DNA of 64,000 bases. Source: a bacterium (GTDB taxonomy: Bacteria > Patescibacteriota > Minisyncoccia > JACQLN01). The translations under genes were made by a program, and so were the position numbers. Below the pieces are notes generated by a model. The model made no database searches. It saw nothing but the letters and a program-made list of their open reading frames with translations, and had not been told where the DNA came from. This document shows, piece after piece, positions 11,244 to 39,902 of this stretch (its first letter is position 1; every line of letters starts with the position of its first letter). The stretch is from positions 211,334-275,333 of the forward strand of contig JAUYOV010000004.1 in assembly GCA_030697795.1 (NCBI GenBank), in the 5' to 3' direction.

Positions 11244-13729
11244 TATACCACGAAGTTAATAAACCTGTCTTTAATAAAAATAACTTTTTTTACGGGGGAG
11301 ACAAGATACTTAGAAATATTTTTGTTGTTTTTAGCCGCCGTTTCAACCTCTTTTTGAGAAGAATCTGCTGGCATTTTAATAACCGCGCGCATTCTGGCAT
11401 TAACCTGCACTACTATGTCTACCTCCTTGTCTTTGACCAGTTTAACGTCAAACTTTGGCCAAGGCGCTATATGAATAGATTTTTTATTCTTTAAAATTTC
11501 TCTAAATATTTCCTCGCTCATATGTGGTGCAAAAGGCGCTAAAATCTTAGCAAAAATTTCTAGTTCGCTTTTGCCAACAGATTCTATATTGGCTTCAAAT
11601 TCATTTAACAAAACCATTAAAGCCGAGACCGAAGTATTGTAATTTAAATTTTCTAAATCTTCTGTAACTTTTTTGATTGTCTTGTGTATCTTTGTTTGTA
11701 TATTGGAATTTGCTTGCCCTTCCGAAGCTCTGAAAGAGCGAAGGAGGGTGATTTGTTTAGAAATTAGAAATTGGGAATTAGAAATTTTCCAGATTCTTTC
11801 CAAGAATCTGATTATCCCTTTTATACCACCATCTCTAAAATCACCACCTTGATCGAACGGACCCAAAAACATTAAGTACATTCTTAAAACATCGGCGCCG
11901 TAATTTTTAATATATTCGTCGGGATTAACCACATTCCCCTTGGATTTTGACATTTTAGCGCCATCTTTTATTAACAAACCGTGGGCACGGAATTTTTTAA
12001 ATGGTTCGTCAAAATTAGTTAAACGCAGGTCCTTGAATACCATTGCTAAAAAACGCACATACAATAAATGCAAAACAGAATGCTCCGCGCCACCAATATA
12101 CATATCTACCGGGCACCATTTTTTAGTTACAGATTGATCCCAAGCGTATTTCTTTTCTTTAACAGAAGCATAACGCAAATAATACCAAGCCGAATCTAAG
12201 AAAGTATCGGAAACATCGGTCTCGCGTCTCGCCATACCTTCGCATTTAGGGCATTTAACTTTATAAAATTTTTCATCGGCCGCTAAAGGCGACTGGCTCG
12301 TACCAGTTGGCCTAAAGTTTTTTATGTAAGGCAATCTAACCGGTAAATCTTTTTCGGGCACCACAACCCAACCTGGATTTTCCAACTCTCCCAAATTAAA
12401 TTCTCCCTTATTTTTGAGATTTGATTTTTGAGATTTGATTTTTTCTGCGCAGTTTTCACAGAAAACAAGCGGTATAGGCGCACCCCAATAACGCTGTCTG
12501 GAAATTAGCCAGTCACGAAGCCGGAATTGAATTGTTTTTTTACCTCCACTCTTTTTTATTCCTTCTTCAATAGAGACTAAAGGTGCGCTACTCACTGGTA
12601 ATTTGAATTTTTGGGCAAATTCTAAATCACGCTCATCGTGCGCTGGAACACCCATAACTGCGCCTGTGCCGTAACCTGCTAAAACATAATCCGAAATCCA
12701 AACCGGAACTTTTTCGTTGTTGGCTGGGTTAATGGCCGAGATACCAGAAAAAACTCCTGTTTTTTCTGGACCCCGACCCTCATGAGGCGTCGGGGTTATA
12801 TTATTTTTTATATACTCCCTGACCTCATTCGGCGCTTGCCAGCCGATATCTAACCAAGACTTTGCTTTCTCGGGCGAAATTGCAATAAACGTTACACCAA
12901 AAACTGTATCTGGGCGTGTAGTAAAAACTTCCAAATACGCCGATTCACGCTGATCTGACGCAGATTTACGCAGAAAAATTCCGCGTTGATCCGCGTTAAT
13001 TTCCGCGTTGATCCGCGTAAGGGGAAATTTTATAGAAGCACCTTCCGATTTACCTATCCAATTTTTTTGAGCTATTTTTACTTTTTCGCTCCAATCTATT
13101 TTATCTAAACCTTTTAAAAGTTTATCGGCGTATTTAGTTATTCTAAAAAACCATTGCTCTAATTCTTTTTTAATAACTTTAGTATTACATCTTTCACATT
13201 CACCACTTATTACTTGTTCATCGGCTAAAACTGTTAAACACGAAGGGCACCAATTAACCGCCGATTTTTTGCGGTAAGCCAAACCATTTTTATATAACTG
13301 AATAAAAATCCATTGAGTCCATTTATAATATTCAGGGTCGTAAGTTTCTAGTTTTTCGTGCCAAGCAAAACCATTGCCTATCATTTGCAGTTGGCGATAA
13401 AAATTTTTCTCGGAAACTCTGGCTTGATCCATCGGGTGTTCGCCAATTTTTAAAGCGTAGTTTTCGGAATGTATGCCAAAACCATCTAAACCAATCGGCT
13501 CAAAAACGTTATAGCCCTGCATTCTTTTAAATCGCCCGTAAATATCGCTCCCCACAAAAGCGTACACATTACCCACGTGTAAGCCTTCAGCTGAAGGATA
13601 TGGAAACATCATTAGGTTATAGAAAGGATTCTTAGCGTTTTTAAGATCCGGTTCGTAAACCTTCTCGGCCAGCCATTTTTTGCGCCATTTAGATTCTACT
13701 CTCTTGTGGTTGTATTTAGCCATTTGCAT
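11243..13729 (-). CDS. leuS: Leucyl-tRNA synthetase, carrying several low-complexity or repeat-derived in-frame insertions
   Basis: HIGH-type motif HVGNVYAF; KMSKS; editing-domain TTRPDT. Inserts at about 11717-11750, 12410-12450 and 12979-13023. Confidence 0.9.
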   Translation of the reverse strand: MQMAKYNHKRVESKWRKKWLAEKVYEPDLKNAKNPFYNLMMFPYPSAEGLHVGNVYAFVGSDIYGRFKRMQGYNVFEPIGLDGFGIHSENYALKIGEHPMDQARVSEKNFYRQLQMIGNGFAWHEKLETYDPEYYKWTQWIFIQLYKNGLAYRKKSAVNWCPSCLTVLADEQVISGECERCNTKVIKKELEQWFFRITKYADKLLKGLDKIDWSEKVKIAQKNWIGKSEGASIKFPLTRINAEINADQRGIFLRKSASDQRESAYLEVFTTRPDTVFGVTFIAISPEKAKSWLDIGWQAPNEVREYIKNNITPTPHEGRGPEKTGVFSGISAINPANNEKVPVWISDYVLAGYGTGAVMGVPAHDERDLEFAQKFKLPVSSAPLVSIEEGIKKSGGKKTIQFRLRDWLISRQRYWGAPIPLVFCENCAEKIKSQKSNLKNKGEFNLGELENPGWVVVPEKDLPVRLPYIKNFRPTGTSQSPLAADEKFYKVKCPKCEGMARRETDVSDTFLDSAWYYLRYASVKEKKYAWDQSVTKKWCPVDMYIGGAEHSVLHLLYVRFLAMVFKDLRLTNFDEPFKKFRAHGLLIKDGAKMSKSKGNVVNPDEYIKNYGADVLRMYLMFLGPFDQGGDFRDGGIKGIIRFLERIWKISNSQFLISKQITLLRSFRASEGQANSNIQTKIHKTIKKVTEDLENLNYNTSVSALMVLLNEFEANIESVGKSELEIFAKILAPFAPHMSEEIFREILKNKKSIHIAPWPKFDVKLVKDKEVDIVVQVNARMRAVIKMPADSSQKEVETAAKNNKNISKYLVSPVKKVIFIKDRFINFVV
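11717..11750. repeat. Small palindromic repeat family (core CGAAGCTYTRAGCGAAGGAGG), copy in frame inside leuS
   Basis: Shares the core with copies at 10430-10470, 14263-14293, 35714-35770, 41711-41776 and 53781-53812. Confidence 0.7.
12979..13023. repeat. ATCCGCG-unit GC-rich repeat (TTCCGCGTTGATCCGCGTTAATTTCCGCGTTGATCCGCG) in frame inside leuS
   Basis: Related copies lie in ileS (34941-35009) and polX (48637-48676). All three are in minus-strand genes. Confidence 0.7.
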
Positions 13730-14690: not shown

Positions 14691-14707
14691 GTTTTTGAGA
14701 AAAAAAT

Positions 14708-14785
14708 ATCATTCCGAACAGCATTATGGAGAAGACTAATTTATAAATAAAGAGGCTCCATATCGTCTGTGAGGAATGATATTTT
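14708..14785 (+). repeat. About 78-bp structured repeat X, copy 1 (upstream of tatD)
   Basis: About 90% identical to 29077-29157. Nested inverted repeats (TCATTCC/GGAATGA; ATGGAG/CTCCAT). Confidence 0.8.
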
Positions 14786-14787
14786 TA

Positions 14788-16269
14788 CTAGTTTAATCTA
14801 GGAAACAAATTCTCGCCTTTCTTAAAGTTTATTGCGGATTCTGTAAACCAGATTTGTTTTCTAATTTTTTCGCCTGTTTCTGGTAAAAATGGTTCAACCA
14901 AATTTAGTATAACACCTAGCAAGTAGCCAGAATTAGCCATAACTTTCCTAAGATTTTCAGTTGAAACCACGTTTGACGTGGCGTCTTTAATTTCCCAAGG
15001 TTTTTTATCGTTAATATATTTATCGGCAAAAGAAACCAAACCCCAAACATTTATTAAAGCTTCGTGTAATTTAATTTCGTCTAAAGAAGATTCATATGCT
15101 TTATAAAAATCGTTGCAAGCTTTTTTAACTTCTGGTTCTATATCCGTAGCAAAATCAAACTTTACCGGGTTTATTTTTTCGCCCAAAGTAACTGTGCGCG
15201 CTACCAAATTTCCTAAACCATTAGCTAAGTCTGCGGAATATCTATCTTCAAACTTTCTTAAACTAAAATCTCCGTCATCGTAAGAAGGAATTTCTCGTAA
15301 AAGATAGTAACGTAACGCATCTGTGCCATATTTTTGAACCAGTGGCACAGGATCCACAATATTACCCAAACTTTTAGACATCTTTTGCCCTTCCACCGAA
15401 ATAAAACCATGAACAAAAATAGCTTGGGGTAATGGCAAACTAGCCGATAAAAGTATACCCGGCCAAATAGCCGCATGAAAACGTAAAATATCTTTGCCTA
15501 CAACTTGAAGATCGGCTGGCCAAAGTTTTTTAAATTGCTCGGTTTCATCGCCATAGCCAATAGCTGTAATGTAATTAGCTAAAGCATCACACCAGACGTA
15601 TATAACTTGGTCGGGATCGCCAGGCACCGGTACGCCCCACGGCAAATCTTTTTTAGGCCTAGAAAAGCTAACATCCTCTAAACCAGATTCTATAAAAGAT
15701 AAAATTTCATTTTTACGAGATTCGGGAATTATTTTTAATTCGTCATTTTTAATTTTAGAAGCAATCTGGCTTTGATATTTTGAAAGCCTAAAAAACCAGT
15801 TTTCTTGTTCTACTGTTTCTGGTGCTTTTTGGTGATCGGGGCATTTACCATCCACCAAATCTTTTTCTGTTTTAAAAGATTCGCAACCCACGCAATAAAG
15901 CCCGTTGTATTTTTTCTTATAGATATCACCGGCTTCCGAAAGTTCCTGCCATAATTTTTGAACACCTGGCCAATGAACTTCTTGATCGGTTGTTCTAATA
16001 AACCCATCCCAAGAAAGATTTAAAACATTTTTTAACTGTTTAAAATATTCTGCGTTTTCGTTTACAAATTCCTGTGCATTTTTATTCTCTCTTTCGGCTG
16101 CGCGAAAAATCTTAACACCGTGTTCGTCGGTACCCGTTAAAAAGAAAACTTCATCACCTTTTATTCTGTGATAACGCGCCAAAACATCCGCTTGAATCTT
16201 TTCTAAAGCGTGTCCAATGTGCGGTTTCGCATTAACATAATCAATGGCGGTTGTAATATAAAACTTCAT
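14788..16269 (-). CDS. metG: Methionyl-tRNA synthetase (short form, no C-terminal tRNA-binding domain)
   Basis: HIGH motif PHIGHALE and KMSKS; Met-RS catalytic core. 493 aa. Confidence 0.9.
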   Translation of the reverse strand: MKFYITTAIDYVNAKPHIGHALEKIQADVLARYHRIKGDEVFFLTGTDEHGVKIFRAAERENKNAQEFVNENAEYFKQLKNVLNLSWDGFIRTTDQEVHWPGVQKLWQELSEAGDIYKKKYNGLYCVGCESFKTEKDLVDGKCPDHQKAPETVEQENWFFRLSKYQSQIASKIKNDELKIIPESRKNEILSFIESGLEDVSFSRPKKDLPWGVPVPGDPDQVIYVWCDALANYITAIGYGDETEQFKKLWPADLQVVGKDILRFHAAIWPGILLSASLPLPQAIFVHGFISVEGQKMSKSLGNIVDPVPLVQKYGTDALRYYLLREIPSYDDGDFSLRKFEDRYSADLANGLGNLVARTVTLGEKINPVKFDFATDIEPEVKKACNDFYKAYESSLDEIKLHEALINVWGLVSFADKYINDKKPWEIKDATSNVVSTENLRKVMANSGYLLGVILNLVEPFLPETGEKIRKQIWFTESAINFKKGENLFPRLN

Positions 16270-18712: not shown

Positions 18713-19621
18713 TTAAAAATAGAATAGCAGTTTTTGTTTTATATTAAAACCCTTACAATGCCTCAAAACTCCCAAATACGAATCTACATTTTTCTCATTA
18801 ATCTTTCTTAACATCCTTCTTTTTGTTTTAGTCCTCAAAACCCTATGGTTAGGCAAAACCACATAACCCAGAAAATCTATACCCTGCCTGTATTTACGAA
18901 TAATTATTTTGTCTGGATGCAAAAATAGCTTTAGATTCTCAAAAAGAAAAGTATTAATTTTGTAAGACAGATTTAATAAATAATATTTATTACTTCCTAA
19001 AATAACAAAATCATCGCAGTAACGAATATAATACTTTTCTTTTAAGTTATGTTTAACAAATTGGTCTAATTCGTTTAAATAAATATTGGCAAATAACTGG
19101 CTGGTTACATTGCCTAAGGGTAACCCTTTGTTAAAACTACCTATTATTTTCTCAACCAACCATACAGCATTATCGTCTTTGATCTTTAGTTGAATCAATT
19201 TAATTAGAGCATCTTGATCTATGGAATCAAAAAACTTTTTAATATCACACTTTAAAGCAAAAATAGTTTGGCTATTGTTTTGGCTTAACTTACGACAAAA
19301 AGTTTCTAGTCTTGTTACTGCTTTGTGTGTTCCTTTGCCTATTCGGCAAGAATAAGAATCAAACATAAAATGTCTATCGAATATTGGATATAAAACTCTA
19401 AAAACAGCTTGATGTAAAACCCTGTCGCGTACACAAGCTTTATGGATATGACGCAATTTTGGGTCGGTAACATAAAAAGGAATATACTGGCTGTGTTTAT
19501 ATGTTTTATTTTTTAATTCGCTATGCAGTTGAAACAGATTATCTTCTAGGTTAAAATCAAATTCTTGAACATCCAACCTTTTTCTTTTGCCTTTTTTAAA
19601 TTCGCGCCAAGCTAAAAACAA
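18713..19621 (-). CDS. DGR reverse transcriptase (RT1)
   Basis: Matches DGR RTs along its length. N-terminal LAWREFKKGKR. Motif 4 is LGNVTSQLFANIYL, the I/LGxxxSQ DGR hallmark. YxDD motif is YCDD. Confidence 0.85.
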   Translation of the reverse strand: MFLAWREFKKGKRKRLDVQEFDFNLEDNLFQLHSELKNKTYKHSQYIPFYVTDPKLRHIHKACVRDRVLHQAVFRVLYPIFDRHFMFDSYSCRIGKGTHKAVTRLETFCRKLSQNNSQTIFALKCDIKKFFDSIDQDALIKLIQLKIKDDNAVWLVEKIIGSFNKGLPLGNVTSQLFANIYLNELDQFVKHNLKEKYYIRYCDDFVILGSNKYYLLNLSYKINTFLFENLKLFLHPDKIIIRKYRQGIDFLGYVVLPNHRVLRTKTKRRMLRKINEKNVDSYLGVLRHCKGFNIKQKLLFYF

Positions 19622-20024
19622 GTTTTCTAAGCTAATAATTTTTTTAAAAATATTATGGAAAATTTCTCCATTAAAGCCCCCCCCCTACGGAGTTGAAATA
19701 TCGCTGGTGCATAAAATTTGTGAATTGTATAAATTATTCCACGAATGTTTGAAAATATTTCCCAAGACGGAACGATTTACTTTGGGCCAAAAAATTGAGA
19801 ACACCATTCTAGAAATTTTAGAACTAATCCTTTCAGCCAGTTACCAATCAAAATATGGAAAAAGTGAAACCTTAATAAGAGGTAGCGATAAAAATGACCT
19901 TCTAAAGTATCTTATCCGTCTTGCTCACGATACCAAATCAATCAATATAAAAAAATATCTATTAGTTGAGGAAAAGGTTTTAGAAATAGGTCGTATGTTA
20001 GGTGGCTGGATAAAATCCAACTAA
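19587..20024 (+). CDS. avd: Avd-like accessory variability determinant (four-helix-bundle family); true start probably near 19709-19718
   Basis: Paralogous to the two other Avd-like ORFs and shares the C-terminal IGRMLGGWI motif. Alignment to those paralogs places the N-terminus near VHKICELYK. Confidence 0.7.
   Translation: MPFLNSRQAKNKFSKLIIFLKILWKISPLKPPPYGVEISLVHKICELYKLFHECLKIFPKTERFTLGQKIENTILEILELILSASYQSKYGKSETLIRGSDKNDLLKYLIRLAHDTKSINIKKYLLVEEKVLEIGRMLGGWIKSN
19677..19686. repeat. Homopolymer C10 in the divergent RT1/avd1 promoter region
   Basis: 10 consecutive C, 56 bp upstream of the RT1 start codon and about 25-30 bp upstream of the likely avd1 start. Confidence 0.9.
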
Positions 20025-20055
20025 ACTTTGCAAAGAGCGCCTAAAAAATAAGGCG
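20024..20055 (+). terminator. Intrinsic terminator after avd1 (AGAGCGCC-loop-GGCGCTCT followed by a T-run)
   Basis: 9-bp GC stem and U-tract. Lies between avd1 and TR1. Confidence 0.5.
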
Positions 20056-20180
20056 CTCTTTTGTTTGGAAACTACCAGAGGACGACCAGCTATGTTGTCG
20101 TTGCGATTGCTAGACCAATTGTAGTTGACGTTGGCTAGACCACCGTTCTCACGGTTACCACCGTAAAGCCGGCTGGAGTC
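20054..20180 (-). repeat. DGR template repeat TR1 (AAC-rich on the minus strand)
   Basis: About 127 nt, nearly identical to 20491-20618. All 8 differences are A in TR1 versus C/T/G in VR1. TR1 encodes GGNRENGGLANVNYNWSSNRNDNIAGRPLV. Confidence 0.85.
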
Positions 20181-20431
20181 CTCAAATTTTTGCTTTAAAC
20201 CGTCCATAATCACCGAAAATCTAAATATAAATTTTCTGAAATCCGCATCCCACGGATAGTTTTTTACTCGGCAACTCTTAAATAATCTAAGAATACCCGA
20301 TCTAGTTTAAAGCAAGGAGTTTCGTTATTTCCTGTTTTAAACAGGAGAGTAAATGCGAGAATAAACCTTAGTCTATTCTTCATTAGCTTTACTCAAGGAA
20401 AATTTTACCAAATTTGTGAAAATAAAAAAAT

Positions 20432-20451
20432 CCCCCAACTTACGTTGGGGG
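20432..20451 (-). promoter_or_regulatory. GC-rich hairpin (CCCCCAAC-GTAA-GTTGGGGG) about 40 bp downstream of VR1
   Basis: 8-bp stem with a GNRA-type loop on the target strand. Confidence 0.4.
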
Positions 20452-20486
20452 AAAATCCAAGGGCCAAAGCCCAAGGGGAAAAGAAC

Positions 20487-21320
20487 CTACTTTGCGAAAC
20501 TCACCAGAGGACGACCAGCTATGCTGCCGCTGCGATTGCTAGACCAATCGTAGTTGACGTAGGCTAGACCACCGTACTCACGGTGACCACCGTAAAGCCG
20601 GCTGGAGTCCTCAAACTTATCGTCGAACCACTCCCACATATTGAATCGGCCGCGATTGCTGTCGTAGAGATTGCCAATGGCATTGGACTCTACAGCCCGC
20701 TCCAACCGAACCTGTTCGGGTTTGAAACCGAATGCTTCGGCGATAGCAGGACAAACCACATCTCGCCATTCATCGTTGGTAATGGCAAAACGAGAGCCCG
20801 AAGGAGTATTATCGTGTTTGCCGATTTTTCCTTCTTCGCGCAATTTACTGATGATTAGCGCGAGAGGGTCATTGGAAAATACTTGCGTGCCGTCGGTGTA
20901 ATTCACACCGACGGTGAAATCAGCTAGATACCAACCTCTGTAGAGTTTGGCACTGTCGGGGGCGAGCTTGCCTTCCCCGATTTTCTGGTAGAACCATTTT
21001 TCAGGTTTTACCCAATTCTTGAGCTTGCAATTCTCGCCAATTCCTTCCATCGGCAGATATACCGGCCTGAAGTCGAACCCAGCCCACTTGGCCAAGTTCT
21101 CTTCGGTGAATTCGGGAGGCAGAGGATCAACATCCACACGGAAGAACTTTTGAAGCTTCTTCTGTGTTGCCTCCACTAAAGCTACCAGCAAAGACACTAT
21201 GCGATGTTCGTTGAAAGCTTTAACACTTTCCAAAGTGTGACTGCCGTCATCTATCTGACGGAAAAAATCTTTGAGCACGCCGGACCACGCCGACATCTCA
21301 CCGACTGGGGCATTAGCCAT
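20487..21320 (-). CDS. DGR target protein 1 (FGE/C-type-lectin-like C-terminal variable domain); GC-rich
   Basis: VR1 lies at the C-terminus. The pattern WEWFDD...RLYGG...GRPLV resembles FGE-type CLec folds. Strong SD AGGAGA upstream. Confidence 0.75.
   Translation of the reverse strand: MANAPVGEMSAWSGVLKDFFRQIDDGSHTLESVKAFNEHRIVSLLVALVEATQKKLQKFFRVDVDPLPPEFTEENLAKWAGFDFRPVYLPMEGIGENCKLKNWVKPEKWFYQKIGEGKLAPDSAKLYRGWYLADFTVGVNYTDGTQVFSNDPLALIISKLREEGKIGKHDNTPSGSRFAITNDEWRDVVCPAIAEAFGFKPEQVRLERAVESNAIGNLYDSNRGRFNMWEWFDDKFEDSSRLYGGHREYGGLAYVNYDWSSNRSGSIAGRPLVSFAK
20491..20618 (-). repeat. DGR variable repeat VR1 (3-prime end of target 1)
   Basis: Encodes GGHREYGGLAYVNYDWSSNRSGSIAGRPLV at the C-terminus of the 277-aa ORF. 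Confidence 0.85.
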
Positions 21321-25542: not shown

Positions 25543-25870
25543 ATAGATGAATTGTATCGTAACAAGAGAAAAATATCACGCTAAAGGAATGTTATAATAT
25601 TCATATCCTGCTAATGCAGTTTGAACCATGGTTCAAACTCGCGGGATATCTCATTTTTGCCTTTCCGCCAAAGCTTTACGGGCGGTAAAAGAATCGCCAG
25701 AGTATTAAACCTTACGGGGTTTAATAGCGTGCGAACTAAAATGGAGATGGAACTTCTTGCTTGTTTTTGGTGGAGATTCCGCCAAAGGCGGATGCTCCCA
25801 AGTAAAATTCAGGAAAGAAGAAACATAAATTTCATACTTTCCGGTGATATTGGATGGAAACAAGCAAAAT

Positions 25871-25992
25871 CTTGACTCCGATGGCAACCGCGTTAGCGTC
25901 GGCAACTTCGATCAGAACGGCCTCAACATCAACAACAACTGGGACGATAACCGCAACGACAATCTTGGCCTGGCCTCCTCTCGAACTTCCAT
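25871..25992 (+). repeat. DGR template repeat TR2 (AAC-rich on the plus strand, non-coding location)
   Basis: Matches the reverse complement of 27629-27749. Encodes VGNFDQNGLNINNNWDDNRNDNLGLASSR, versus VR2 VGDFDRFGLYFDYDHDDNRYDSLGLASSR. Confidence 0.75.
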
Positions 25993-26037: not shown

Positions 26038-26388
26038 TCAATGAGTTTTTGACGAGCGGATCCAACCGCCTAACATCCGCCCTATCTCATTAACCATTTC
26101 CTGAATTAAAATATATTTTTTATTCTCTAAAACACCAATATCTTTAGCCAAGCGGACATAAACCCTAAAAAGATTGAGCTTAACACTAACTCTTTCTAAG
26201 TATGTTACTCTTTTGAGCTTATCCAAACTGCTTATTTCCAACAAATAGCCCAATATCTCAATCAAAATCAAATTGCATTTCTCGCCTAAAGAATACTTGT
26301 CTTGCTTGGGAAAACCTTTCAAACAAGCATAAAATTCTTTATATAAATCGTAGGTTTTTTTAAATAGCGGAATATCAAAACTATCCAT
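26038..26388 (-). CDS. avd: Avd-like accessory variability determinant (avd2)
   Basis: 116 aa. C-terminus EIGRMLGGWIRS. Paralog of avd1 and avd3. Start diverges from RT2 with a 2-nt overlap. Confidence 0.75.
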   Translation of the reverse strand: MDSFDIPLFKKTYDLYKEFYACLKGFPKQDKYSLGEKCNLILIEILGYLLEISSLDKLKRVTYLERVSVKLNLFRVYVRLAKDIGVLENKKYILIQEMVNEIGRMLGGWIRSSKTH

Positions 26389-27382
26389 GAAAATTTATCA
26401 AAATATATACGAACAAATAATCTCTGCCGAAAATTTGTTTCTAGCTTGGGCAGAATTCAAAAAAGATAAACAAAAAAGAAAAGACGTTATGCAATTTGAA
26501 TACAGGCTGGAAAAAAATATTTTAGGCTTGTGCCAAGAACTAAAAAATCAAACATATAAGCATAGTCCTTATAGTAATTTTTATATAACCGACCCCAAAC
26601 CCAGGCACATTCACAAAGCATTGGTTAGAGACAGAGTGGTGCACCATTCAGTTTTTAATATCCTTAATCCTGTTTTTGAAAAAACTTTTATCTTTAATTC
26701 TTATTCCTGCAGAAAAAACAAAGGCACTCACAAGGGCATAAACCAATTACACAAAATTTTAAGAAAAATAAGCCAAAACAATCATAAACCATGCTTTATA
26801 TTAAAATGCGATATTAAAAAATTCTTTCAATCAGTTAATCACGGTATTTTGTTAAATATTATTGATCGAAAAATATACGATGAAAAAGCATTGGCCTTAA
26901 TTAAAGAAATTGTAGAGAGTTTTAAACCCGGGTTGCCCATAGGCAACCTAACCAGCCAATTATTTGCCAATATTTATTTAAATAATCTGGACCAATATAT
27001 AAAGCACCATTTAAAAATTCCCTTTTATATAAGATATACCGATGATTTTGTGATTATTTATAACGATTTGGAAAAACTAAAACAGTGGCTTAGCCAGATT
27101 CAGGAATTTTTAAATGTAAACCTAAAACTACGTCTGCATCCCAATAAAGTTATTCTGCGCAAATATCATCAAGGAACTGATTTTTTGGGCTATGTGCAAT
27201 TTCCCCATTATTGTATTTTGCGCCCTAGAACCGAAAGAAGAATAATGAAAAGGATACAGCAGGGAGTTTCTGAACAATCGCTAAATTCATATCTAGGTGT
27301 GCTTTCTCATGCTAATAGTTATAAATTATCGGAAAAAATCAAAAACTTGTTTTGGTTTAATAAAAAAGAAAACCCGTCTTGA
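26387..27382 (+). CDS. DGR reverse transcriptase (RT2)
   Basis: IGNLTSQLFANIYLN (SQ motif); IRYTDDFV. Matches RT1 and RT3 along its length. Confidence 0.85.
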   Translation: MKIYQNIYEQIISAENLFLAWAEFKKDKQKRKDVMQFEYRLEKNILGLCQELKNQTYKHSPYSNFYITDPKPRHIHKALVRDRVVHHSVFNILNPVFEKTFIFNSYSCRKNKGTHKGINQLHKILRKISQNNHKPCFILKCDIKKFFQSVNHGILLNIIDRKIYDEKALALIKEIVESFKPGLPIGNLTSQLFANIYLNNLDQYIKHHLKIPFYIRYTDDFVIIYNDLEKLKQWLSQIQEFLNVNLKLRLHPNKVILRKYHQGTDFLGYVQFPHYCILRPRTERRIMKRIQQGVSEQSLNSYLGVLSHANSYKLSEKIKNLFWFNKKENPS

Positions 27383-27427: not shown

Positions 27428-27463
27428 TTGGTTGGTTGGTTGGTTGGTTGGTTGGTTGGTTGG
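27428..27463. repeat. Microsatellite (TTGG)9
   Basis: Perfect tetranucleotide tandem repeat between the RT2 stop and the target 2 stop. Confidence 0.9.
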
Positions 27464-27622: not shown

Positions 27623-28396
27623 CTATTTGGAACTTCGAGAGGAGGCCAGGCCAAGACTGTCGTAGCGGTTATCGTCATGGTCGTAGTCGAAGTAGAGGCC
27701 GAACCGATCGAAATCGCCGACGCCAACGCGGCTGCCATCGGAGTCAAGAGACGAAGTTCGGACATAGGTGTGTTCGAACAGTCGCTCACCAGTAGCCATG
27801 AAGTGGCCAATGATGGCGTAGACCACCACTTGCGCCTTCGGTGTTTCCTCGTCTTTGCCGAGTAGCTTCTGCTGATCATCCCAAGTCTTGGACGTGGAAT
27901 CCATAACCGGAGTTTTGCGGACGAGATGCCATCCGACTTCGCCCTTGTATTTGGCAAAAGTCTCCTTGTTGTACCAATCCTGTTCATAAAACAGGCGCTG
28001 ACCGTTGTTAGCGACCTTGCCTCGGATGTCCAGGATTGAGAGAGGAAAAATGGCGACAAGGGTATGCGTGTCTCTTGCCTCGGTAAGCTCGGCTTCAGTG
28101 AACGGAACTTCGGCCAAAGCCGAGATCTGCGCTCGCGTGGGCTTTACACCGAGATACTGAATCGCTTCCTCTACCCCAAACATGTTGCGCCCCATTATCT
28201 GATGGGCCGTTTTCTGCGAAGTGGTGGCTTCATAGCCGCCGTTGCTGATAAGCCTAACCACTTTCGTGGCAAGGTCATTGCCCTTGGAGCCTATGACTCT
28301 CTGGGCAAGTTCATCGTTGAGGCCAGCGGCCTCAAGTTTTAGGAGCACTTCATGCTCTTTGTGCACCGACAGAGTACGGCTCACGATGGTTTCCAT
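27623..28396 (-). CDS. DGR target protein 2 (C-terminal variable domain); GC-rich
   Basis: 257 aa. VR2 at the C-terminus. Strong SD GGAGGT upstream. Confidence 0.75.
   Translation of the reverse strand: METIVSRTLSVHKEHEVLLKLEAAGLNDELAQRVIGSKGNDLATKVVRLISNGGYEATTSQKTAHQIMGRNMFGVEEAIQYLGVKPTRAQISALAEVPFTEAELTEARDTHTLVAIFPLSILDIRGKVANNGQRLFYEQDWYNKETFAKYKGEVGWHLVRKTPVMDSTSKTWDDQQKLLGKDEETPKAQVVVYAIIGHFMATGERLFEHTYVRTSSLDSDGSRVGVGDFDRFGLYFDYDHDDNRYDSLGLASSRSSK
27629..27749 (-). repeat. DGR variable repeat VR2 (3-prime end of target 2)
   Basis: See TR2. About 13 mismatches at TR adenines. In addition, one codon differs at all three positions (TGG in TR, CAT in VR) and there is one C/T difference. 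Confidence 0.75.
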
Positions 28397-29038: not shown

Positions 29039-29076
29039 AAACGGTAAAAGTATAACATGTATCCTAAATTAAAATT

Positions 29077-29157
29077 ATCATCCCGAACAGCATTATGGAG
29101 AAGACTATCTTATATAAATAAAGAGGCTCCATATCGTCTGTGAGGGGTGATAATTTT
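29077..29157 (+). repeat. About 80-bp structured repeat X, copy 2 (upstream of recO-like, divergent from the GT39 gene)
   Basis: See copy 1. The outer stem shows a compensatory change (TT/AA to CC/GG). Confidence 0.8.
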
Positions 29158-29211
29158 TCTTAAAAACTTGCTGGCGAGCGAAAGAGCAATTTTTAAGCTA
29201 AACTATTAAAC

Positions 29212-34370: not shown

Positions 34371-37300
34371 TTAAATATTTTTAATCCCCACCCCGATTTC
34401 AAATCCTTCATAATTCCAAACTTTGTGGACCAAGAAATTTTCGTGTTCGGTTATGCCAAAGTTAATTTGTGTAGAACGAGTTTCGGCTTTTATAACTTGT
34501 TCCCAACGAGTTAATAATTCTTTAAAGTTGGCGTTTTGGTTAAGTTCGTAATGTAAAATTATTTTATCTTCTGGTGTTAATTTGGCTTCTTTTCGCATTT
34601 CGTTTATATTGCGAATCATTTCACGAACCATTCCTTCTTCCTTAAGCTCCGCCGTAAGTTCGGTATCCAAATTAACGTTGTTCTTTTCTATTTTTCTATC
34701 ACTTAAAACTTTTTTAACATTGAGTTCTTCGGCAACTATATATAGAACATCGCCAATTAAATTGTAATCAGCCGGTGAAACATATAAAGCATTTAAGGGC
34801 TGGCGTACGCGCAAACCCGCTTGAGCGCGCTCGGCAAGCCCCAGCGCCACAATTTCGCGGGCTCTATCCATGACTTTCGTAATATCGGAAGCCTTAACAG
34901 TTTTGGTATTTGGCCATTTTTCCAAATGAACCGACTCCCCAAACGCCGATAAACGCCGATTTTTATCCGCGCTGATCCGCGCTGATCCTTGCGTTAATCC
35001 GCGTAATTCTTGATAGAGCCATTCCGATATAAACGGCGCAAATGGCCCCATAACAACAGATACGCGTTTTAAAACTTCGGTTAAAGTATTTTGAGCCGAT
35101 AGTTTTTCGGCATCTATATTTTGCTTTTGGAACTTACGGCGGCTACGGCGTATATACCAATTAGAAAGTTCGTCTATAAAAGCTTCTATAGCACGCGAAG
35201 CGGAAGTAATGTCGTAGCTTTCTAAAAATTTATTTACTTCGAACTCCAACATTTCTGTTTTAATCAAAACCCATTTATCTAAAATATCTGTTTTGGCTAG
35301 TAAAGATTTCGGAGCTTCGGTGTAATAAGTTTCTAAAAACAAAAACGAATTAATTAAAGTATCGGCGAATCTACGTTTTTTAGATTCTATATCGCGCAAA
35401 CTAAAAAGTTTATTATCGCCCGGCGCGTTTACAGTGTAAAAATACCAACGCATCATATCGAACCCAACTTTCTCACCCACCAGCCAAGGGTCTACAATGT
35501 TCCCTTTAGACTTCGACATCTTCTCGCCCTTTTCATCTAGAACATGGTTTAAACTAATTACATTCTTATACGGATTACCTTCGCCTAAAGCGGTAGATAC
35601 CGCCATTAAAGTATAAAACCAGCCCCGGGTTTGATCGATCGCTTCGCAAATATAATCTGCTGGAAAATGGTCTTTCGGTAAATTTTTATTTTTTATATTT
35701 AAATTTTTCTTGTCCTTCGAAGCCTTGCTGTGCCACTCCGTAGCTTTGAGCGAAGGGTGGGCGTAGGAGGAAACTTGAGACGCCCACGGCATTGCACCCG
35801 AATCAAACCAAACATCGGCCAAGTCTTTTATACGTTCCATCTTCGAGGAACACATAGAACACTTAAGGAACACGCTATCGGCATAGGGGCGATGCAGGTT
35901 TAAATTGCCTTCTTCATCGTGGGGCCAGTTATTTGTTTCTACAAAAGTAAATTCGGCAGGGGACAAAGCTAGTTTAGAATCTTTAACTGCGTTTTGATAC
36001 AAAAGTTTTGTTTCGTCTTCGCCATAAATTCCATTAGATAATTGCATTAAAAATAAGGGGTCCATATGGCTTACCACAACCACCTTCTTGCCAGCGTGTT
36101 CTCTAGAAACATCCATCATAAATTCGCGCACCCGTTTGGCCACATCCAACCACGATTCGCCTGCCGGCGCGGGGCGAATAAATTTATCTTTAAAAGAATT
36201 AAAATATTTTTCATATTCCAAAAATGGCCCGCCATTAAACTCGCCAGTGTTTATTTCGCGTAAGCGTTCATCAAAAATTACTTCTTTTATTTTAAGTTCG
36301 TCCGCCAATATTTGAGCCGTCTCTCTGGCTCTTAATAGATCCGATGAATATATGGCCGATACCTTATTAGCCGCCAAAAGTTTTTTTATATTTTGGGCGG
36401 ATGCCTCTGCTTGTTTTCTACCCTTTTCGGTTAGGGGGTTTAAAATCTTTTCAGGGTAAGCACTGCAAATACCTTTAGCGTTAGATTCTGCTTCGCCATG
36501 GCGCATTAAAATTAAAGTGGTTGGAGAATCTAGGCGGTGTTCGTTAAGCTCGGCTAAAGAACCAATAACAGTTTTGTGTTCGCATTTGGTGCATGCCCAA
36601 ATTGGCAAGGGTGTTCCCCAATAGCGTTCGCGGCTTATAGCCCAGTCTTTAACCTCGCGTAACCATTCGCCAAACCGGCCATCTTTAATGTGTTCGGGCA
36701 CCCAATTAACTTTTTCGTTATTTTTAATTAGATCGTTTCTTAACGCCGACATTTTTATAAACCAACTTTCTTGGGCGTAATATAGTAAGGGCGATTTACA
36801 CCTCCAGCAAAAAGGATATTCGTGCTTATAGCTTGACTCATTAAACAGCAAATTTTGTTTTTTTAAGTAAAACAAAATCGTTTTTTCGGTTATGGGGTCT
36901 TTTTTGTTTTCACTAACAACAGCAAGCCCGCCTACTATAGGAACAGATTTTACAAAAACTCCTTCACGATTAACCGTGTGGAATTTAGGCAAATTTAATT
37001 TGGAACCGAGTTCAAAATCGTCGACGCCATACATTACGGCTGTATGCACAATGCCCGTACCATCTGCGGTAGTTACAAAATCGGCTTCGTAAACTCTGTA
37101 CGAATTTTCGGATTCCAACTCTTTAACAGCAAAAAGTGGTTCGTAAGAAAGTCTAGTAAGCTCGCTAGAAGTTAGTTCTTTATTTATTTTGTATTCTACT
37201 TTAGCCTCGCCAAAAACTTTAGGCGCTAAATCGCGAGCCAAAATATATTTTTCACCATTAGCTTCGACTTCTACATAGGTAACTTTCGGGCCAACAGCTA

Positions 37301-38003
37301 ACGCAACATTTCCCGGTAACGTCCAAGGCGTCGTGGTCCAAGCCAAAAGAAAAGTGTTTTCTCCGCCAGCTGGCGGATTTTTAACTTTAAATTTTATTAT
37401 GACCGACTTATCTGTAACTGTTTCGTAACCCTGCGCCACTTCGTGGCTGGAGATGGGCGTACCACACCTAACACAAAAAGGCACAACTTTATAATCTTTA
37501 ACTAAAAGTTTTTTATCGTAAATTCTTTTTATAATATTCCACAAACTTTCTATGTATTGCGGTTCGTAGGTTATGTATGGGTTTTTAAGGTCGAGCCAGT
37601 AACCCATGCGGCGCGTTAGCTTTTCCCATTCATCTTTATACTGCCAGACTGATATTTGGCATTCTTTATTAAATTGAGCGATGCCGTATTTTTCTACTTC
37701 GCGCTTATTTTTTAAACCTAATTTTTTTTCGACTTCAATTTCTACCGGCAAACCGTGTGTATCCCAACCAGCCCGACGCAAAACATAGCGCCCTTTCATT
37801 GTTTGAAAACGGCAAACAATATCTTTAAACGATCTAGCTAAAACATGATGGAGCCCTGGTTTACCGTTGGCCGTAGGCGGGCCTTCGTAAAATACGAAAG
37901 GTTTACCATCTTTAGTGGCTTTTAAAGTCTTTTCAAAAACATCGTTATCGTGCCAATGTTTTAAAACTTTTTCTTCTTCTTGGGGTAAATCAACGTGACG
38001 CAT
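34371..38003 (-). CDS. ileS: Isoleucyl-tRNA synthetase with an inserted histidine-phosphatase (PGAM-like) domain and repeat-derived in-frame inserts
   Basis: HIGH-type motif PPTANGKPGLHHV; KMSKS; editing domain. The insert LILMRHGEAESN...VVVSHMD (RHG and second His motifs) sits between WACTKCEH and LHRPYAD. Confidence 0.9.
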   Translation of the reverse strand: MRHVDLPQEEEKVLKHWHDNDVFEKTLKATKDGKPFVFYEGPPTANGKPGLHHVLARSFKDIVCRFQTMKGRYVLRRAGWDTHGLPVEIEVEKKLGLKNKREVEKYGIAQFNKECQISVWQYKDEWEKLTRRMGYWLDLKNPYITYEPQYIESLWNIIKRIYDKKLLVKDYKVVPFCVRCGTPISSHEVAQGYETVTDKSVIIKFKVKNPPAGGENTFLLAWTTTPWTLPGNVALAVGPKVTYVEVEANGEKYILARDLAPKVFGEAKVEYKINKELTSSELTRLSYEPLFAVKELESENSYRVYEADFVTTADGTGIVHTAVMYGVDDFELGSKLNLPKFHTVNREGVFVKSVPIVGGLAVVSENKKDPITEKTILFYLKKQNLLFNESSYKHEYPFCWRCKSPLLYYAQESWFIKMSALRNDLIKNNEKVNWVPEHIKDGRFGEWLREVKDWAISRERYWGTPLPIWACTKCEHKTVIGSLAELNEHRLDSPTTLILMRHGEAESNAKGICSAYPEKILNPLTEKGRKQAEASAQNIKKLLAANKVSAIYSSDLLRARETAQILADELKIKEVIFDERLREINTGEFNGGPFLEYEKYFNSFKDKFIRPAPAGESWLDVAKRVREFMMDVSREHAGKKVVVVSHMDPLFLMQLSNGIYGEDETKLLYQNAVKDSKLALSPAEFTFVETNNWPHDEEGNLNLHRPYADSVFLKCSMCSSKMERIKDLADVWFDSGAMPWASQVSSYAHPSLKATEWHSKASKDKKNLNIKNKNLPKDHFPADYICEAIDQTRGWFYTLMAVSTALGEGNPYKNVISLNHVLDEKGEKMSKSKGNIVDPWLVGEKVGFDMMRWYFYTVNAPGDNKLFSLRDIESKKRRFADTLINSFLFLETYYTEAPKSLLAKTDILDKWVLIKTEMLEFEVNKFLESYDITSASRAIEAFIDELSNWYIRRSRRKFQKQNIDAEKLSAQNTLTEVLKRVSVVMGPFAPFISEWLYQELRGLTQGSARISADKNRRLSAFGESVHLEKWPNTKTVKASDITKVMDRAREIVALGLAERAQAGLRVRQPLNALYVSPADYNLIGDVLYIVAEELNVKKVLSDRKIEKNNVNLDTELTAELKEEGMVREMIRNINEMRKEAKLTPEDKIILHYELNQNANFKELLTRWEQVIKAETRSTQINFGITEHENFLVHKVWNYEGFEIGVGIKNI
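34941..35009. repeat. ATCCGCG-unit repeat in frame inside ileS
   Basis: AAACGCCGATAAACGCCGAT...ATCCGCGCTGATCCGCGCTGATCC..TAATCCGCG. Confidence 0.7.
35714..35770. repeat. Small palindromic repeat family, copy in frame inside ileS
   Basis: CCTTCGAAGCC...CCGTAGCTTTGAGCGAAGGGTGGGCGTAGGAGG. Confidence 0.7.
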
Positions 38004-38022: not shown

Positions 38023-39018
38023 TTAAGCTAGCGGAAAATAAGACATTAGTAAAATATCGGTAATTCCATAAGTATTCCCATGCTTCAACAACCCCAAATA
38101 AGAACTTACCGTTTCTGGCTCTGGGTTCTCTCCAATTCTTTTCATCATCCGTTTTTTAGTAACTGTTCTTAAAACTTTATGATCTGTAAAATGAACCCAA
38201 CCCAAAAAATCCGCACCCGAAGCTAGAGTTTTGATAAAAACTTTGTCGGGGTGGAGTGTGAGTTTGAGATTTTTAATTAAAAATTCTTGAATCTTTGGGA
38301 TTAAGTTCTCTAACCATTCTTTGTCTTGCGATAAAACCACAAAATCATCGGGGTATCTAATGTAATACTTAACTTTTAATTTATGTTTAACAAACTGGTC
38401 AAACTTGTTCATATAGATATTCACCAAAAGCTGGGAGGTTAAATTGCCCAAGGGCAAACCAATATTGGGTTTTGTTTTAAAACTGGACACAACATTATTG
38501 AGTAACCAAATAATATTTTTGTCTGGTATATATTCAGTTAGTATCTCTAGCAAAACTTTGTGATGAATACTGGAAAAGAATTTTTTAATGTCGCATTTTA
38601 AGACCCAGCAAGTTTTAGTGTTATTTTGACCAACTTTGTAAGCAAAAGACTGAAAACGATTCAGGGCTTTATGCGTGCCTTTGTTCTTTCGGCAAGAAAA
38701 AGAATCGGCTATGAATGTTTTATCAAAGAAAGGGTAAAGAATATGATAAATTGCGTGGTGAAGTAGCCTATCCCGAACTGTGGCTTTATGTATGTTTCGG
38801 GGTTTGGGGTCGGAAATATTGAAAGCTTGGTAAATGCCATGCCGATAAGTGAAATTGACCAAGTCTTGGTTAAGTTGAAAAATATTATCCATTAAATTAA
38901 AGCCAAATTCCTGCACATCTTTTCTTTTTCTCTTGCCTTTGATAAACTCCTGCCAAGCCAATAACAAATTATCAACGCTAATAACATCTTCAAAACTATG
39001 GATCAATTGAGTTTTCAT
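38023..39018 (-). CDS. DGR reverse transcriptase (RT3)
   Basis: LGNLTSQLLVNIYMN (SQ motif); IRYPDDFV. Paralog of RT1 and RT2. Confidence 0.85.
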   Translation of the reverse strand: MKTQLIHSFEDVISVDNLLLAWQEFIKGKRKRKDVQEFGFNLMDNIFQLNQDLVNFTYRHGIYQAFNISDPKPRNIHKATVRDRLLHHAIYHILYPFFDKTFIADSFSCRKNKGTHKALNRFQSFAYKVGQNNTKTCWVLKCDIKKFFSSIHHKVLLEILTEYIPDKNIIWLLNNVVSSFKTKPNIGLPLGNLTSQLLVNIYMNKFDQFVKHKLKVKYYIRYPDDFVVLSQDKEWLENLIPKIQEFLIKNLKLTLHPDKVFIKTLASGADFLGWVHFTDHKVLRTVTKKRMMKRIGENPEPETVSSYLGLLKHGNTYGITDILLMSYFPLA

Positions 39019-39035
39019 AATTCTACATTAAGTAA

Positions 39036-39046
39036 CCCCCCCCCCC
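39036..39046. repeat. Homopolymer C11 in the 53-bp divergent RT3/avd3 intergenic region
   Basis: 11 consecutive C. A similar C10 tract at 19677-19686 sits between RT1 and avd1. Confidence 0.9.
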
Positions 39047-39071
39047 GAGACTTCCACCGCTGATTGATAAA

Positions 39072-39443: not shown

Positions 39444-39447
39444 AGAA

Positions 39448-39573
39448 AGTTGCGAGCACGGCCGAAGGATTGTTGGCATTCCAGTCGTTCTCAAGCCAGT
39501 TGTAGTTCCAGTCCCACTCACCATCGTTCCAGTAGAGATAAAGAACGTTGCGGTTGCCATTCGGACTGCGAAT
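39448..39573 (-). repeat. DGR template repeat TR3
   Basis: Encodes RSPNGNRNVLYLYWNDGEWDWNYNWLENDWNANNPSAVLA. Begins 5 nt after the avd3 stop. Confidence 0.85.
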
Positions 39574-39824: not shown

Positions 39825-39851
39825 TTCCCTACGACATTACGTCGTAGGGAA
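39825..39851 (-). promoter_or_regulatory. Hairpin TTCCCTACGAC-loop-GTCGTAGGGAA about 54 bp downstream of VR3
   Basis: 11-bp stem. Confidence 0.4.
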
Positions 39852-39902
39852 TTTAGAGTACAAAGTCCAAAGGATCTAAAAGTTCTAGAATTCTAAGGAC
39901 TA

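Follow-up and report, generated by a model that had tools for sequence, protein, structure and literature searches.

A diversity-generating retroelement from a Patescibacteria bacterium, with a conserved structured RNA upstream of its template repeat

The RNA of just one diversity-generating retroelement (DGR), that of Bordetella phage, has been dissected. In its ribonucleoprotein (RNP), part of the Sp segment, which lies 3' of the template repeat (TR), pairs with the TR: Sp47-56 and TR117-129 form the template:primer duplex (10.1101/2023.10.23.563531). After 2 nt, Sp59-70 pairs with avd369-379, upstream of the TR, in the duplex known as cPRT Stop, and the TR loops out (10.1101/2023.10.23.563531). 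Sp continues with a short stem-loop, A-minor adenosines, a single-stranded "thumb ring," and a stem-loop that binds the reverse transcriptase (RT); another stem-loop, immediately 3' of the TR, binds the accessory protein Avd (10.1101/2023.10.23.563531). Here, we describe DGR1, from a bacterium of the Patescibacteriota (Minisyncoccia; JACQLN01), whose TR is preceded by a conserved structured RNA. DGR1 lies in a stretch of 64,000 nt, which we call the window (positions 211,334 to 275,333 of the forward strand of contig JAUYOV010000004.1, from GenBank assembly GCA_030697795.1). All coordinates below are positions within the window.

The generality of the Bordetella phage mechanism rests on a survey across taxa, which spanned 40 nt upstream of each TR and 100 nt downstream and which found Bordetella-like elements downstream of the TRs in DGRs from the candidate phyla radiation, or CPR (10.1101/2023.10.23.563531). 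Because only 40 nt upstream of the TRs were examined, the survey would have missed a layout with these elements 5' of the TR. The B subtypes of DGRs differ in how avd and TR are ordered and oriented, and subtype B3 makes up 90% of the set of CPR DGRs (Wu et al. 2018, PMC5758913). The gene order of DGR1 appears to be the catalogued B3 architecture, an assignment that we made by inference from the text description. In common with CPR/DPANN DGRs of this kind, DGR1 has a Patescibacteria host, an avd/TR/RT core that is not in the Bordetella order or orientation, and a target protein without a recognizable domain. DGR1 is ordinary for the CPR in its parts and its gene order, and is one more DGR among the many that are catalogued there. 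In the literature on CPR and DPANN DGRs that we looked at, we found no description of three features that are discussed below: a conserved RNA domain 5' of the TR, a homopolymer tract, and an array of YTTGG repeats.

Another system whose RNA has a similar layout is the retron. The msr-msd RNA of a retron is a short, dedicated, non-coding transcript in which the priming strand is 5' of the template. A 5' segment forms a duplex with the 3' end of the template region, and priming is from the nucleotide at the end of that duplex. This resembles the layout of the DGR1 RNA, with its structured 5' part and its duplex to the 3' end of the template. Unlike a retron, DGR1 has a DGR-type RT, a variable repeat (VR), a target gene, and Avd, and its cDNA is presumed to be for retrohoming, not for msDNA (multicopy single-stranded DNA). 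By its sequence, DGR1 is not a retron: besides the presence of the VR, the target gene, and Avd, the matches of its RT to retron RTs are far weaker than its matches to DGR RTs.

On the minus strand, the order of the DGR1 cassette is the target gene (20487-21320), a 313-nt spacer, the template repeat (TR1), a hairpin, avd1 (on the opposite strand), and RT1. The features are:

20487 to 21320, minus strand: target gene of DGR1, encoding 277 amino acids, with N-terminal helices, then a predicted C-type-lectin/FGE-like domain, and VR1 at the C-terminus
20503 to 20618, minus strand: VR1, the variable repeat, which is residues 235-272 of the target (from the alignment and from entropy within the family)
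20074 to 20189, minus strand: TR1, the template repeat (from the alignment with VR1)
19587 to 20024, plus strand, opposite to TR1 and RT1: avd1, the accessory variability determinant (matches to Pfam bAvd and NCBIfam)
19677 to 19685, no strand assigned: homopolymer of nine C (G9 on the RT-sense strand), at the point where avd and RT diverge
18713 to 19621, minus strand: RT1, the DGR reverse transcriptase, whose listed open reading frame (ORF) starts with TTG (matches to RVT_1 and to 8ub7)

DGR1 is flanked by genes of the housekeeping type (for tRNA synthetases, an M16 peptidase, SmpB, and transfer-messenger RNA or tmRNA), so it is chromosomal. Besides DGR1, the window holds two other DGRs, DGR2 and DGR3. 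Reportedly, Paul et al. described multiple DGRs per small CPR genome in 2017.

The last 38 codons of the target gene have a non-coding copy, rich in adenine, in TR1. On the minus strand, TR1 and VR1 form a direct repeat of 116 nt, which aligns without gaps at an offset of 429 and has 8 mismatches (93% identity). All eight mismatches are at a T on the plus strand of TR1, which is an A on the coding strand. These are at positions 20095, 20098, 20101, 20120, 20132, 20147, 20156, and 20187 of TR1, where the plus strand of VR1 has C, C, C, C, A, A, G, and C, respectively. With 30 adenines in the 116 nt of TR1, the hypergeometric probability that all 8 mismatches would be at adenines is 9.2e-6. Otherwise, neither repeat has any ordinary substitutions. 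The initial annotation of this DNA had already reported eight substitutions, all of them at template adenines, and we confirmed exactly that number. Its translations of the two repeats were also correct. It was right about the existence of the repeat pair and about the high end of the VR, while its coordinates for the TR were wrong by 9-20 nt. Its register, with 20054-20180 against 20491-20618 (an offset of 437-438), gives an alignment that is no better than chance (47-48 of 186 positions identical), and we rejected it.

Seven of the eight changes from TR1 to VR1 are non-synonymous (N>H, N>Y, N>Y, N>D, N>S, D>G, and N>S), and every one of these is at codon position 1 or 2. Six of the affected codons encode Asn (AAC or AAT) and one encodes Asp (GAC); the eighth mismatch is silent (AAA>AAG).

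On the coding strand, the homology starts at 20189/20618. At the 3' end, it continues up to CTGGT (20074/20503), and then, past a 1-nt indel, through AGTTTC; it is lost before the stop codon of the target gene. If the indel is allowed, then the homology in TR1 extends to 20068. This indel is the sole difference between TR and VR in DGR1 that does not involve an adenine. As a sequence pattern, the 3' ends of the repeats have the IMH/IMH* arrangement (IMH stands for initiation of mutagenic homing): GCTGGTCGTCCTCTGGT is the same in TR1 and VR1, and it is followed by AGTTTC in TR1 and by GAGTTTC in VR1, a difference of 1 nt. The initial annotation had named two observations that would argue for a plain duplication instead of a DGR, namely mismatches at other bases upon realignment or homology that continues past the 3' end of the gene. 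Neither was found: all 8 substitutions at the offset of 429 are at adenines, and the homology ends inside the gene. The suggestion that the 71-amino-acid ORF at 19998-20213 is the TR, and not a gene, also stands, as this ORF has no family match and lies inside a non-coding structured RNA. The earlier entry on the repeat pair had missed the opposite strand of avd, the conserved RNA in the spacer, and the existence of a third DGR.

By sequence similarity, RT1 belongs to the same clade of RTs as that of Bordetella phage. It matches RVT_1 (E = 2e-20), and its best match among solved structures in PDB is the Bordetella phage DGR RT (8ub7, E = 4e-42); the matches to group II intron and retron RTs are far weaker (about 1e-17, and about 1e-17 to 1e-18 for the retron RTs). 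In the alignment, both the LGNVTSQLFANIY motif, which has the DGR-type pattern (I/L)GxxxSQ, and the catalytic YxDD motif, as YCDD, are intact. Avd1 matches Pfam's bAvd (E = 5e-21) and, over residues 39-143, NCBIfam's DivGenRetAVD (NF033474), with 82.5 bits as compared to a curated equivalog cutoff of 80; a sequence search did not detect any solved homolog of Avd1. Together with a target of C-type-lectin/FGE-like fold that has the VR at its C-terminus, these neighbors bear out the earlier interpretation of the repeat pair as a DGR.

The target protein has no match in Pfam or NCBIfam, including no match to Pfam's FGE-sulfatase or to a DUF (domain of unknown function). It has over 200 homologs, none of which has a family annotation; the named ones are from metagenome-assembled genomes of Patescibacteria/CPR. 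An AlphaFold2 model of the target, from 79 homologs, has a predicted template modeling score (pTM) of 0.73; its confidence is low in just two places, the N-terminus and residues 236-262. The latter is the hypervariable stretch, where the per-residue confidence (pLDDT, predicted local distance difference test) is below 50. The modeled fold matches TvpA, Mtd, TaqVP, and FGE-like proteins; according to this model, the target is built on the C-type-lectin-type scaffold of DGR variable proteins. For example, TvpA from Treponema denticola and other variable proteins of the FGE/C-type-lectin type (2y3c, 1yu0, and 5vf4) have a similar fold, but with just 13-15% identity to the target and with a different N-terminal helical region. 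Variation across the 79 homologs follows the template. At codons where TR1 has an A in position 1 or 2, the mean column entropy is 2.66 bits, versus 0.48 bits for the other codons in the VR. The Asn-templated columns contain the residues that can be reached from AAC (G, S, D, Y, H, R, N, and others).

To compare DGR1 with its relatives, we scanned collections of genomes and metagenomes and fetched 97 related loci. About 40 of these have the same layout: target, a spacer of about 300 nt, TR, a gap of about 45 nt, avd on the opposite strand, and RT. Among 31 non-redundant loci, and using an unbiased ungapped trim, 472 of 527 mismatches between TR and VR (90%) were at adenines in the TR. In one pair of loci (L025 and L087), the TRs and the spacers are identical and the VRs differ at 18 sites, 13 of which are opposite TR adenines. 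Another locus (L013) has a lone target gene about 52 kb from the cassette of L014, on the same contig, and 12 of its 14 mismatches to the TR of L014 are at A, so some of the related DGRs have remote targets. The target proteins of the compared loci are only about 50% identical. We also observed one pair (L049 and L051) with identical targets, VRs, and spacers, and with TRs that differ at 8 of 122 positions, including sites that are not adenines. A DGR would be expected to do the reverse; one of the assemblies may be chimeric.

The evidence for DGR activity is at the level of the family, from these related loci and from the entropy across homologs, and is indirect for the DGR1 copy itself. Overall, it is very probable that DGR1 is a complete chromosomal DGR of a Patescibacteria (CPR) bacterium.

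Whether this copy is currently working is another matter, which leads to the homopolymer tract between avd1 and RT1. DGR2 also has such a tract (C11 at 39036-39046), which is intergenic. Across the 64-kb window there are two G/C runs of at least 7 nt, both of them at DGR avd/RT junctions, while about 0.23 runs of at least 8 nt would be expected. Of 23 related loci, 20 have such a tract, with a length of 8-12 nt. The tract-free loci DGR3, L009, and L014 have ordinary ATG starts; in DGR3, the starts of avd and RT overlap in a palindromic CATG. In the tract-bearing loci of the DGR1 type, the tract lies inside the overlapping head-to-head frames of avd and RT, and the conserved N-terminus of the RT usually lacks an in-frame start. 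In DGR1, the conserved frame of RT1 is open to 19684, and the only ATG upstream (19712-19710) is one base out of frame at G9. For avd1, the part that is supported by hidden Markov models is 19701-20024, and the candidate starts are GTG at 19707, or ATG at 19655 if read through the C9 tract. With G8 in place of G9, both RT (from the ATG at 19712) and Avd (from the ATG at 19655) would be open. Across 21 loci, RT and Avd are both in frame with the upstream ATGs in 5 cases and both out of frame in the other 16. (We considered the coupling of the RT and Avd offsets, in 21 of 21 loci, as evidence of a dual switch and discarded it. The coupling is arithmetically forced, as each upstream ATG, read on the other strand, is an in-frame His codon of the other gene.) Among the related loci, we found no contigs that were otherwise identical and differed in the length of the tract, and we found no literature that links DGRs to such homopolymer tracts. 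The tract might be a slipped-strand on/off switch, a site of transcriptional slippage, or a promoter spacer (as it is intergenic in DGR2); or there might be a non-canonical start or an assembly error.

Given the frame state at G9, the DGR1 cassette may be off at present. A broader alternative is that DGR1 is a real DGR whose copy is off or decaying, with RT and possibly Avd out of frame at G9, and with the VR as a relic. RT1 has no in-frame ATG, GTG, or TTG before its conserved N-terminal peptide, and its one upstream ATG (at 19712) is in the wrong frame. Also, just 8 of the 30 adenines in TR1 have changed, as compared to typically 12-22 in relatives, which is the second-lowest count among the 31 non-redundant loci (L044 has 7). 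On the other side, a decaying copy does not readily account for 8 of 8 mismatches being of the A type, for the absence of ordinary substitutions between TR and VR, or for the intact motifs of the RT. The frame shift is shared with 16 of 21 relatives, so it looks like a property of the family (a switch, slippage, or a non-canonical start). And as described below, the RNA element of DGR1 has the highest covariance score of any match. We consider this alternative, of a copy that is off or decaying, to be less likely than not, if one to be taken seriously.

Within the spacer between the target gene and TR1, a core of about 200 nt is near-invariant or shows compensatory changes across the related loci. 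The features of the spacer and the edges of TR1 are:

20457 to 20476, minus strand: three YTTGG repeats, CCCTTGGGCTTTGGCCCTTGG, just after the stop codon of the target and on the VR side only
20431 to 20452, minus strand: intrinsic terminator of the target, with a 9-bp stem and a T run; relatives also have a hairpin and T run here
20402 to 20410, minus strand: putative promoter of the TR RNA (by inspection), TGGTAAAAT, an extended -10-like box that precedes helix P1 by about 7 nt
20200 to 20395, minus strand: structured RNA domain, with helices P1-P6, the invariant CGAAACUCCUUG, and the invariant GUAAAAA (from conservation and covariation)
20316 to 20323, minus strand: GAAACUCC, which forms helix 4 with the 3' edge of TR1 and is followed by a UU linker at 20314-20315
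20305 to 20313, minus strand: GCUUUAAAC, the 5' strand of helix 5, which pairs with 20192-20200 (covariation)
20192 to 20200, minus strand: GUUUAAAGC, which is the 3' strand of helix 5 and stops 3 nt short of TR1 (covariation)
20068 to 20076, minus strand: GG-U-AGUUUC, the IMH*-like 3' edge of TR1 and the template strand of helix 4, where VR1 has GGUGAGUUUC
20032 to 20061, no strand assigned: hairpin with a 10-bp stem, AAAGAGCGCC...GGCGCUCUUU, with covariation at every one of its 10 pairs and with 93.6% of cells paired

Of the 25 pairs that RNAalifold predicted in the spacer, 14 had compensatory changes. We then specified an explicit structure of 70 pairs, comprising P1-P3, the two bridging helices (4 and 5), P4-P6, and the hairpin 3' of the TR, and we tested it on 27 loci. 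Across these loci, 90.8% of cells are paired, as compared to 35-50% if the partners are slid by 1-3 columns. Similarly, 52 of the 70 pairs are changed on both sides, versus 17-27 with slid partners. None of 500 column shuffles reached the observed values for pairing and covariation. G.U pairs are more common than A.C pairs (93 vs. 36), which favors the TR-sense strand as the RNA. When the DGR1 sequence was folded by itself, the minimum free energy (MFE) structure recovered all of the helices (z = -8.9). There is little doubt about the fold of the 5' RNA domain itself.

We built a covariance model (R1) of the 5' domain. The DGR1 element scores 206.9 bits, the top score among all of its matches. 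Matches to R1 are confined to loci that have a cassette, with none among the loci that have a lone homolog of the target, so the RNA element accompanies the TR rather than the 3' end of the target gene. In Rfam, at the gathering threshold, the whole window contains only the tmRNA and one tRNA, and a permissive scan of 19950-20650 gave only sub-threshold noise. By inspection, we also considered a pseudoknot between the loop of P2 (CAAGG, which is invariant) and CCUUG. We dropped it, as the changes in L014, L052, and L065 are uncompensated and DGR3 lacks the loop motif.

Consensus signals suggest that TR1 is carried on a separate RNA of about 370 nt. The -10-like box is directly after the terminator of the target. 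By inspection, most of 30 loci have such a box (TAAAAT, TAGAAT, TAAGAT, or TATAAT), at a fixed distance from a GCTAATG anchor; scripted patterns found it in about half of the 30 loci, and in its extended TGnTA form in 8 of 30. A generic two-hexamer promoter scan did not call the box at 20402-20410. At the other end, the hairpin at 20032-20061 is 6 nt (CAAACA, 20062-20067) 3' of the AGUUUC strand that ends TR1, and it abuts the stop codon of the convergent avd1. By consensus, this hairpin is assigned as the terminator for avd1 and, probably, for the TR RNA as well; it looks bidirectional. It is also the only hairpin between TR1 and the stop codon of avd1.

The two helices that link the 5' domain to the edges of TR1 share one bridging strand, GAAACUCC-UU-GCUUUAAAC (20323-20305), with 8 nt in helix 4, a linker of 2 nt, and 9 nt in helix 5. 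In the 27 loci, helix 5 is 98.4% paired, with compensatory changes at 8 of its 9 pairs. Helix 4 is 96.3% paired in the same loci, and MFE folding recovered it in both DGR1 and DGR3. After the bridging strand come the stem-loop P4 and the invariant GUAAAAA, then a further two hairpins and a single-stranded stretch that is conserved. The limits of the homology between TR and VR lie at these helices: it starts 3-7 nt after helix 5 in 23 of the 27 loci, its ungapped part ends 1-2 nt into helix 4 in 22 of the 27, and the 1-nt indel of DGR1 is inside helix 4. Such a pattern would be expected of cDNA synthesis that begins at the inner end of helix 4 and is halted at helix 5.

DGR3 was left out of the derivation of the structure and serves as an independent test. 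It has these features:

25602 to 25857, plus strand: RNA element of DGR3 (covariance model match, E of about 1e-14)
about 25870 to 25990, plus strand: TR3, rich in Asn codons
25998 to 26033: hairpin of DGR3
26038 to 26388, minus strand: avd3
26387 to 27382, plus strand: RT3
27629 to 27749, minus strand: VR3, in a convergent target gene of 257 amino acids (target3, 27623-28396), found with an adenine-tolerant scan

Of the mismatches between TR3 and VR3, 13 are at adenines and 4 are not (a C>T and a TGG>CAT triplet). In both the MFE (z = -5.4) and the centroid folds of DGR3, AGAUGGAA-C-UUC pairs with the 3' edge of TR3, and the adjoining UUGCUUGUUU pairs with the segment just 5' of TR3, which is the same bridging topology. 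The single non-A difference between TR3 and VR3 at the 3' end of TR3 (C vs. G, at 25984) is inside helix 4.

For DGR2, the features are:

38023 to 39018, minus strand: RT of DGR2
39072 to 39443, plus strand: avd of DGR2
39452 to 39572, minus strand: TR of DGR2
39910 to 40030, minus strand: VR of DGR2, in a target of 214 amino acids with no family match

Including the target, the DGR2 cassette spans 38023-40547, and its genes are laid out as in DGR1. All 23 of the mismatches between its TR and VR are at adenines, and 23 of the 29 adenines in the TR have changed. By eye, and in the MFE structure, its spacer has a P2-like hairpin with the loop GAUUAAGGUU, as in the DGR1-type element.

How does the DGR1 system compare to that of Bordetella phage BPP-1 (mtd-avd-TR-brt; 8ub7 series; PMC6182149)? 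The two share the RT clade and Avd, the adenine-specific mismatches, and a VR at the C-terminus of a protein of the C-type-lectin type. The predicted RNA of DGR1 also has features of the Bordetella phage RNA: a duplex at the 3' end of the TR, a 2-nt linker, a duplex upstream of the TR, a stem-loop and an A-rich stretch, further hairpins, and a stem-loop right after the TR. By analogy, 20316-20323 would correspond to the Sp47-56 primer strand, helix 5 to the cPRT Stop duplex, and the hairpin at 20032-20061 would take the place of the Avd-binding stem-loop. Unlike in BPP-1, avd of DGR1 is on the opposite strand, between TR and RT, and the bridging strand and its hairpins, the presumed RT-binding elements, are 5' of the TR (20200-20395), not in a 3' Sp. 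DGR1 also differs in having an additional 5' domain (P1-P3), an RNA that is apparently its own transcription unit, direct YTTGG repeats after the VR in place of a GC-rich inverted repeat, and a poly-G:C tract at the avd/RT junction, and in being chromosomal instead of phage-borne.

Our proposed mechanism follows the Bordetella phage paradigm. RT-Avd would copy the TR RNA into cDNA, misincorporating opposite adenines, and this cDNA would replace the VR. Each replacement would re-randomize about a dozen residues, mainly at Asn codons, on the surface of the C-terminal part of the target. We propose that the TR RNA, of about 370 nt, would run from its own -10 box at 20402-20410 to the hairpin at 20032-20061, and that its 5' domain would do the jobs of the 3' Sp segment in Bordetella phage. 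In particular, GAAACUCC and the 3' edge of the TR would form the template:primer duplex, with priming from the nucleotide at the end of the duplex. Two nucleotides later, the same strand and the segment just 5' of the TR would form the stop duplex, and the TR would loop out. In other words, the RNA of DGR1 would be a circular permutation of the characterized DGR RNA, with the equivalent of Sp47-140 moved from 3' to 5' of the TR. Based on the covariation and the topology, we lean towards this account of the RNA's function (a separate TR RNA, priming and stop duplexes, and a permutation), although not by much.

Several observations count against this proposal. Helix 5 has strong support. The weakest link is the reading of helix 4 as the primer duplex: of its 8 pairs, just 2 covary and 5 never vary, and 7 loci have an A.A mismatch, making it the weakest element of the structure. 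In DGR2, R1 has no match, and the MFE structure contains a stop-like helix with no demonstrable primer helix. And the promoter and the terminator of the TR RNA were both assigned from consensus signals.

The main competing idea about the RNA is that the 5' domain is a stabilizing or regulatory leader, and not an equivalent of Sp, so that the priming and RT-binding elements would be 3' of the TR, antisense to avd. The U run after the hairpin is short in the TR sense, so the transcript might read through into this region, and as mentioned above, Bordetella-like elements were found downstream of CPR TRs in the survey (10.1101/2023.10.23.563531). Also, for the 3' edge of the TR of DGR1, the downstream partner is marginally better, at -9.6 vs. 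-8.6 kcal/mol. Across the 27 loci, though, the duplex energies favor upstream partners. For the 5' flank of the TR, the upstream partner is better than any partner within 200 nt downstream in 26 of 27 loci, which adds to the covariation of helix 5. The TR's 3' edge, for which this energy control is weak, pairs better upstream in 22 of the 27. The upstream pairing also occupies the strand that a downstream Sp would need. Furthermore, the 2-nt spacing between the helices, and the stem-loop and A-run that follow, mirror the order of elements in Bordetella phage; the downstream sequence is constrained by coding for avd; and the survey covered just 40 nt upstream. We view 3' priming elements as improbable, and we prefer the permuted arrangement, with priming from the 5' domain.

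Another alternative is that the spacer is conserved just as a small-protein gene or as a promoter region, without a structured RNA. There is an ORF of 39 amino acids within the spacer and inside the RNA element (20264-20383, minus strand), which we rejected as a gene: its length ranges from 0 to 57 codons across loci, its start is absent from 3 loci, and it has a stop at codon 2 in 2 loci. As conservation of the spacer tracks base-pairing, with compensatory changes, and not this ORF, we consider a coding or promoter-only spacer very unlikely. Least credible of all is that the repeats are the remnant of a plain duplication or gene conversion of the 3' end of the gene, with no retroelement involved: direct repeats of this length, identity, and spacing could arise that way, but not mismatches that are all at one base of one copy (P = 9e-6), with the same asymmetry in 31 loci, next to RT and Avd, and in a homology that stops before the end of the gene.

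The YTTGG repeats are found on the other side of the spacer, by the VR. In relatives of DGR1, arrays of 3-5 YTTGG repeats, spaced by about 8-10 nt, follow the stop codon of the target, and they are absent next to TRs. Across 30 loci, the density of YTGG is 3.27 per 45 nt after the stop codon and 0.27 in the rest of the spacer, which is a difference of about 12-fold. Arrays are also present after most of the lone or remote target genes. They sit where Bordetella phage has its GC-rich inverted repeat, after the IMH. We had read the sequence after the VR as a hairpin, and we replaced this with the direct-repeat reading. The YTTGG arrays are a candidate for the element by which the target site is recognized. 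Separately, there is a perfect tandem repeat, (CCAA)x9 on the minus strand or (TTGG)n on the plus strand, at 27428-27462, between the stop codon of RT3 and the 3' end of target3. Its TTGG unit is the same as in the arrays by the VRs of the DGR1 family, but it is on the other strand, about 160 nt from VR3.

Putting the three features together gives a joint reading, in which this CPR clade, or perhaps B3 as a whole, would use a permuted, retron-like, separately transcribed RNA of about 370 nt, with the primer strand, the stop duplex, and the RT-binding hairpins 5' of the template. The poly-G:C tract, as a hypermutable site in the overlapping avd and RT frames, would serve as one stochastic on/off switch of hypermutation, and the YTTGG array would mark the VR in place of the GC hairpin. 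We offer this combination tentatively, and we would not give it an even chance.

The window has some other features. SmpB (40755-41195, plus strand) is followed by the tmRNA (41262-41623, plus strand), and both adjoin the target gene of DGR2. An ORF at 34371-38003 (minus strand), of 1210 amino acids, resembles isoleucyl-tRNA synthetase, with a His_Phos_1 insert (residues 497-650) between the halves of the class I catalytic domain. A scan for repeats found a motif with the unit ATCCGCG(T/C)T(G/A)A at three dispersed sites (family D4; 12958-13020, 34966-35006, and 48636-48676). It also found an intergenic element of about 90 nt in two copies (families D5 and D6; 14702-14789 and 29071-29160), which are 85-92% identical and 14.4 kb apart. 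One of these copies is directly downstream of a gene that resembles methionyl-tRNA synthetase.

Our comparative analysis adds a testable model: in this clade, the template RNA is a permuted form of the DGR RNA that has been dissected. If the 5' strand does prime, then this would explain how the dominant gene order in the CPR, with an inverted avd right after the TR, is workable. It would also mean that the RNP tolerates permutation, and it would link the RNA layouts of DGRs and retrons. An RNA of about 370 nt and two small proteins would then be a compact kit for engineering targeted hypermutation. And if the homopolymer tract is a switch, then the cell could gate its own hypermutation.

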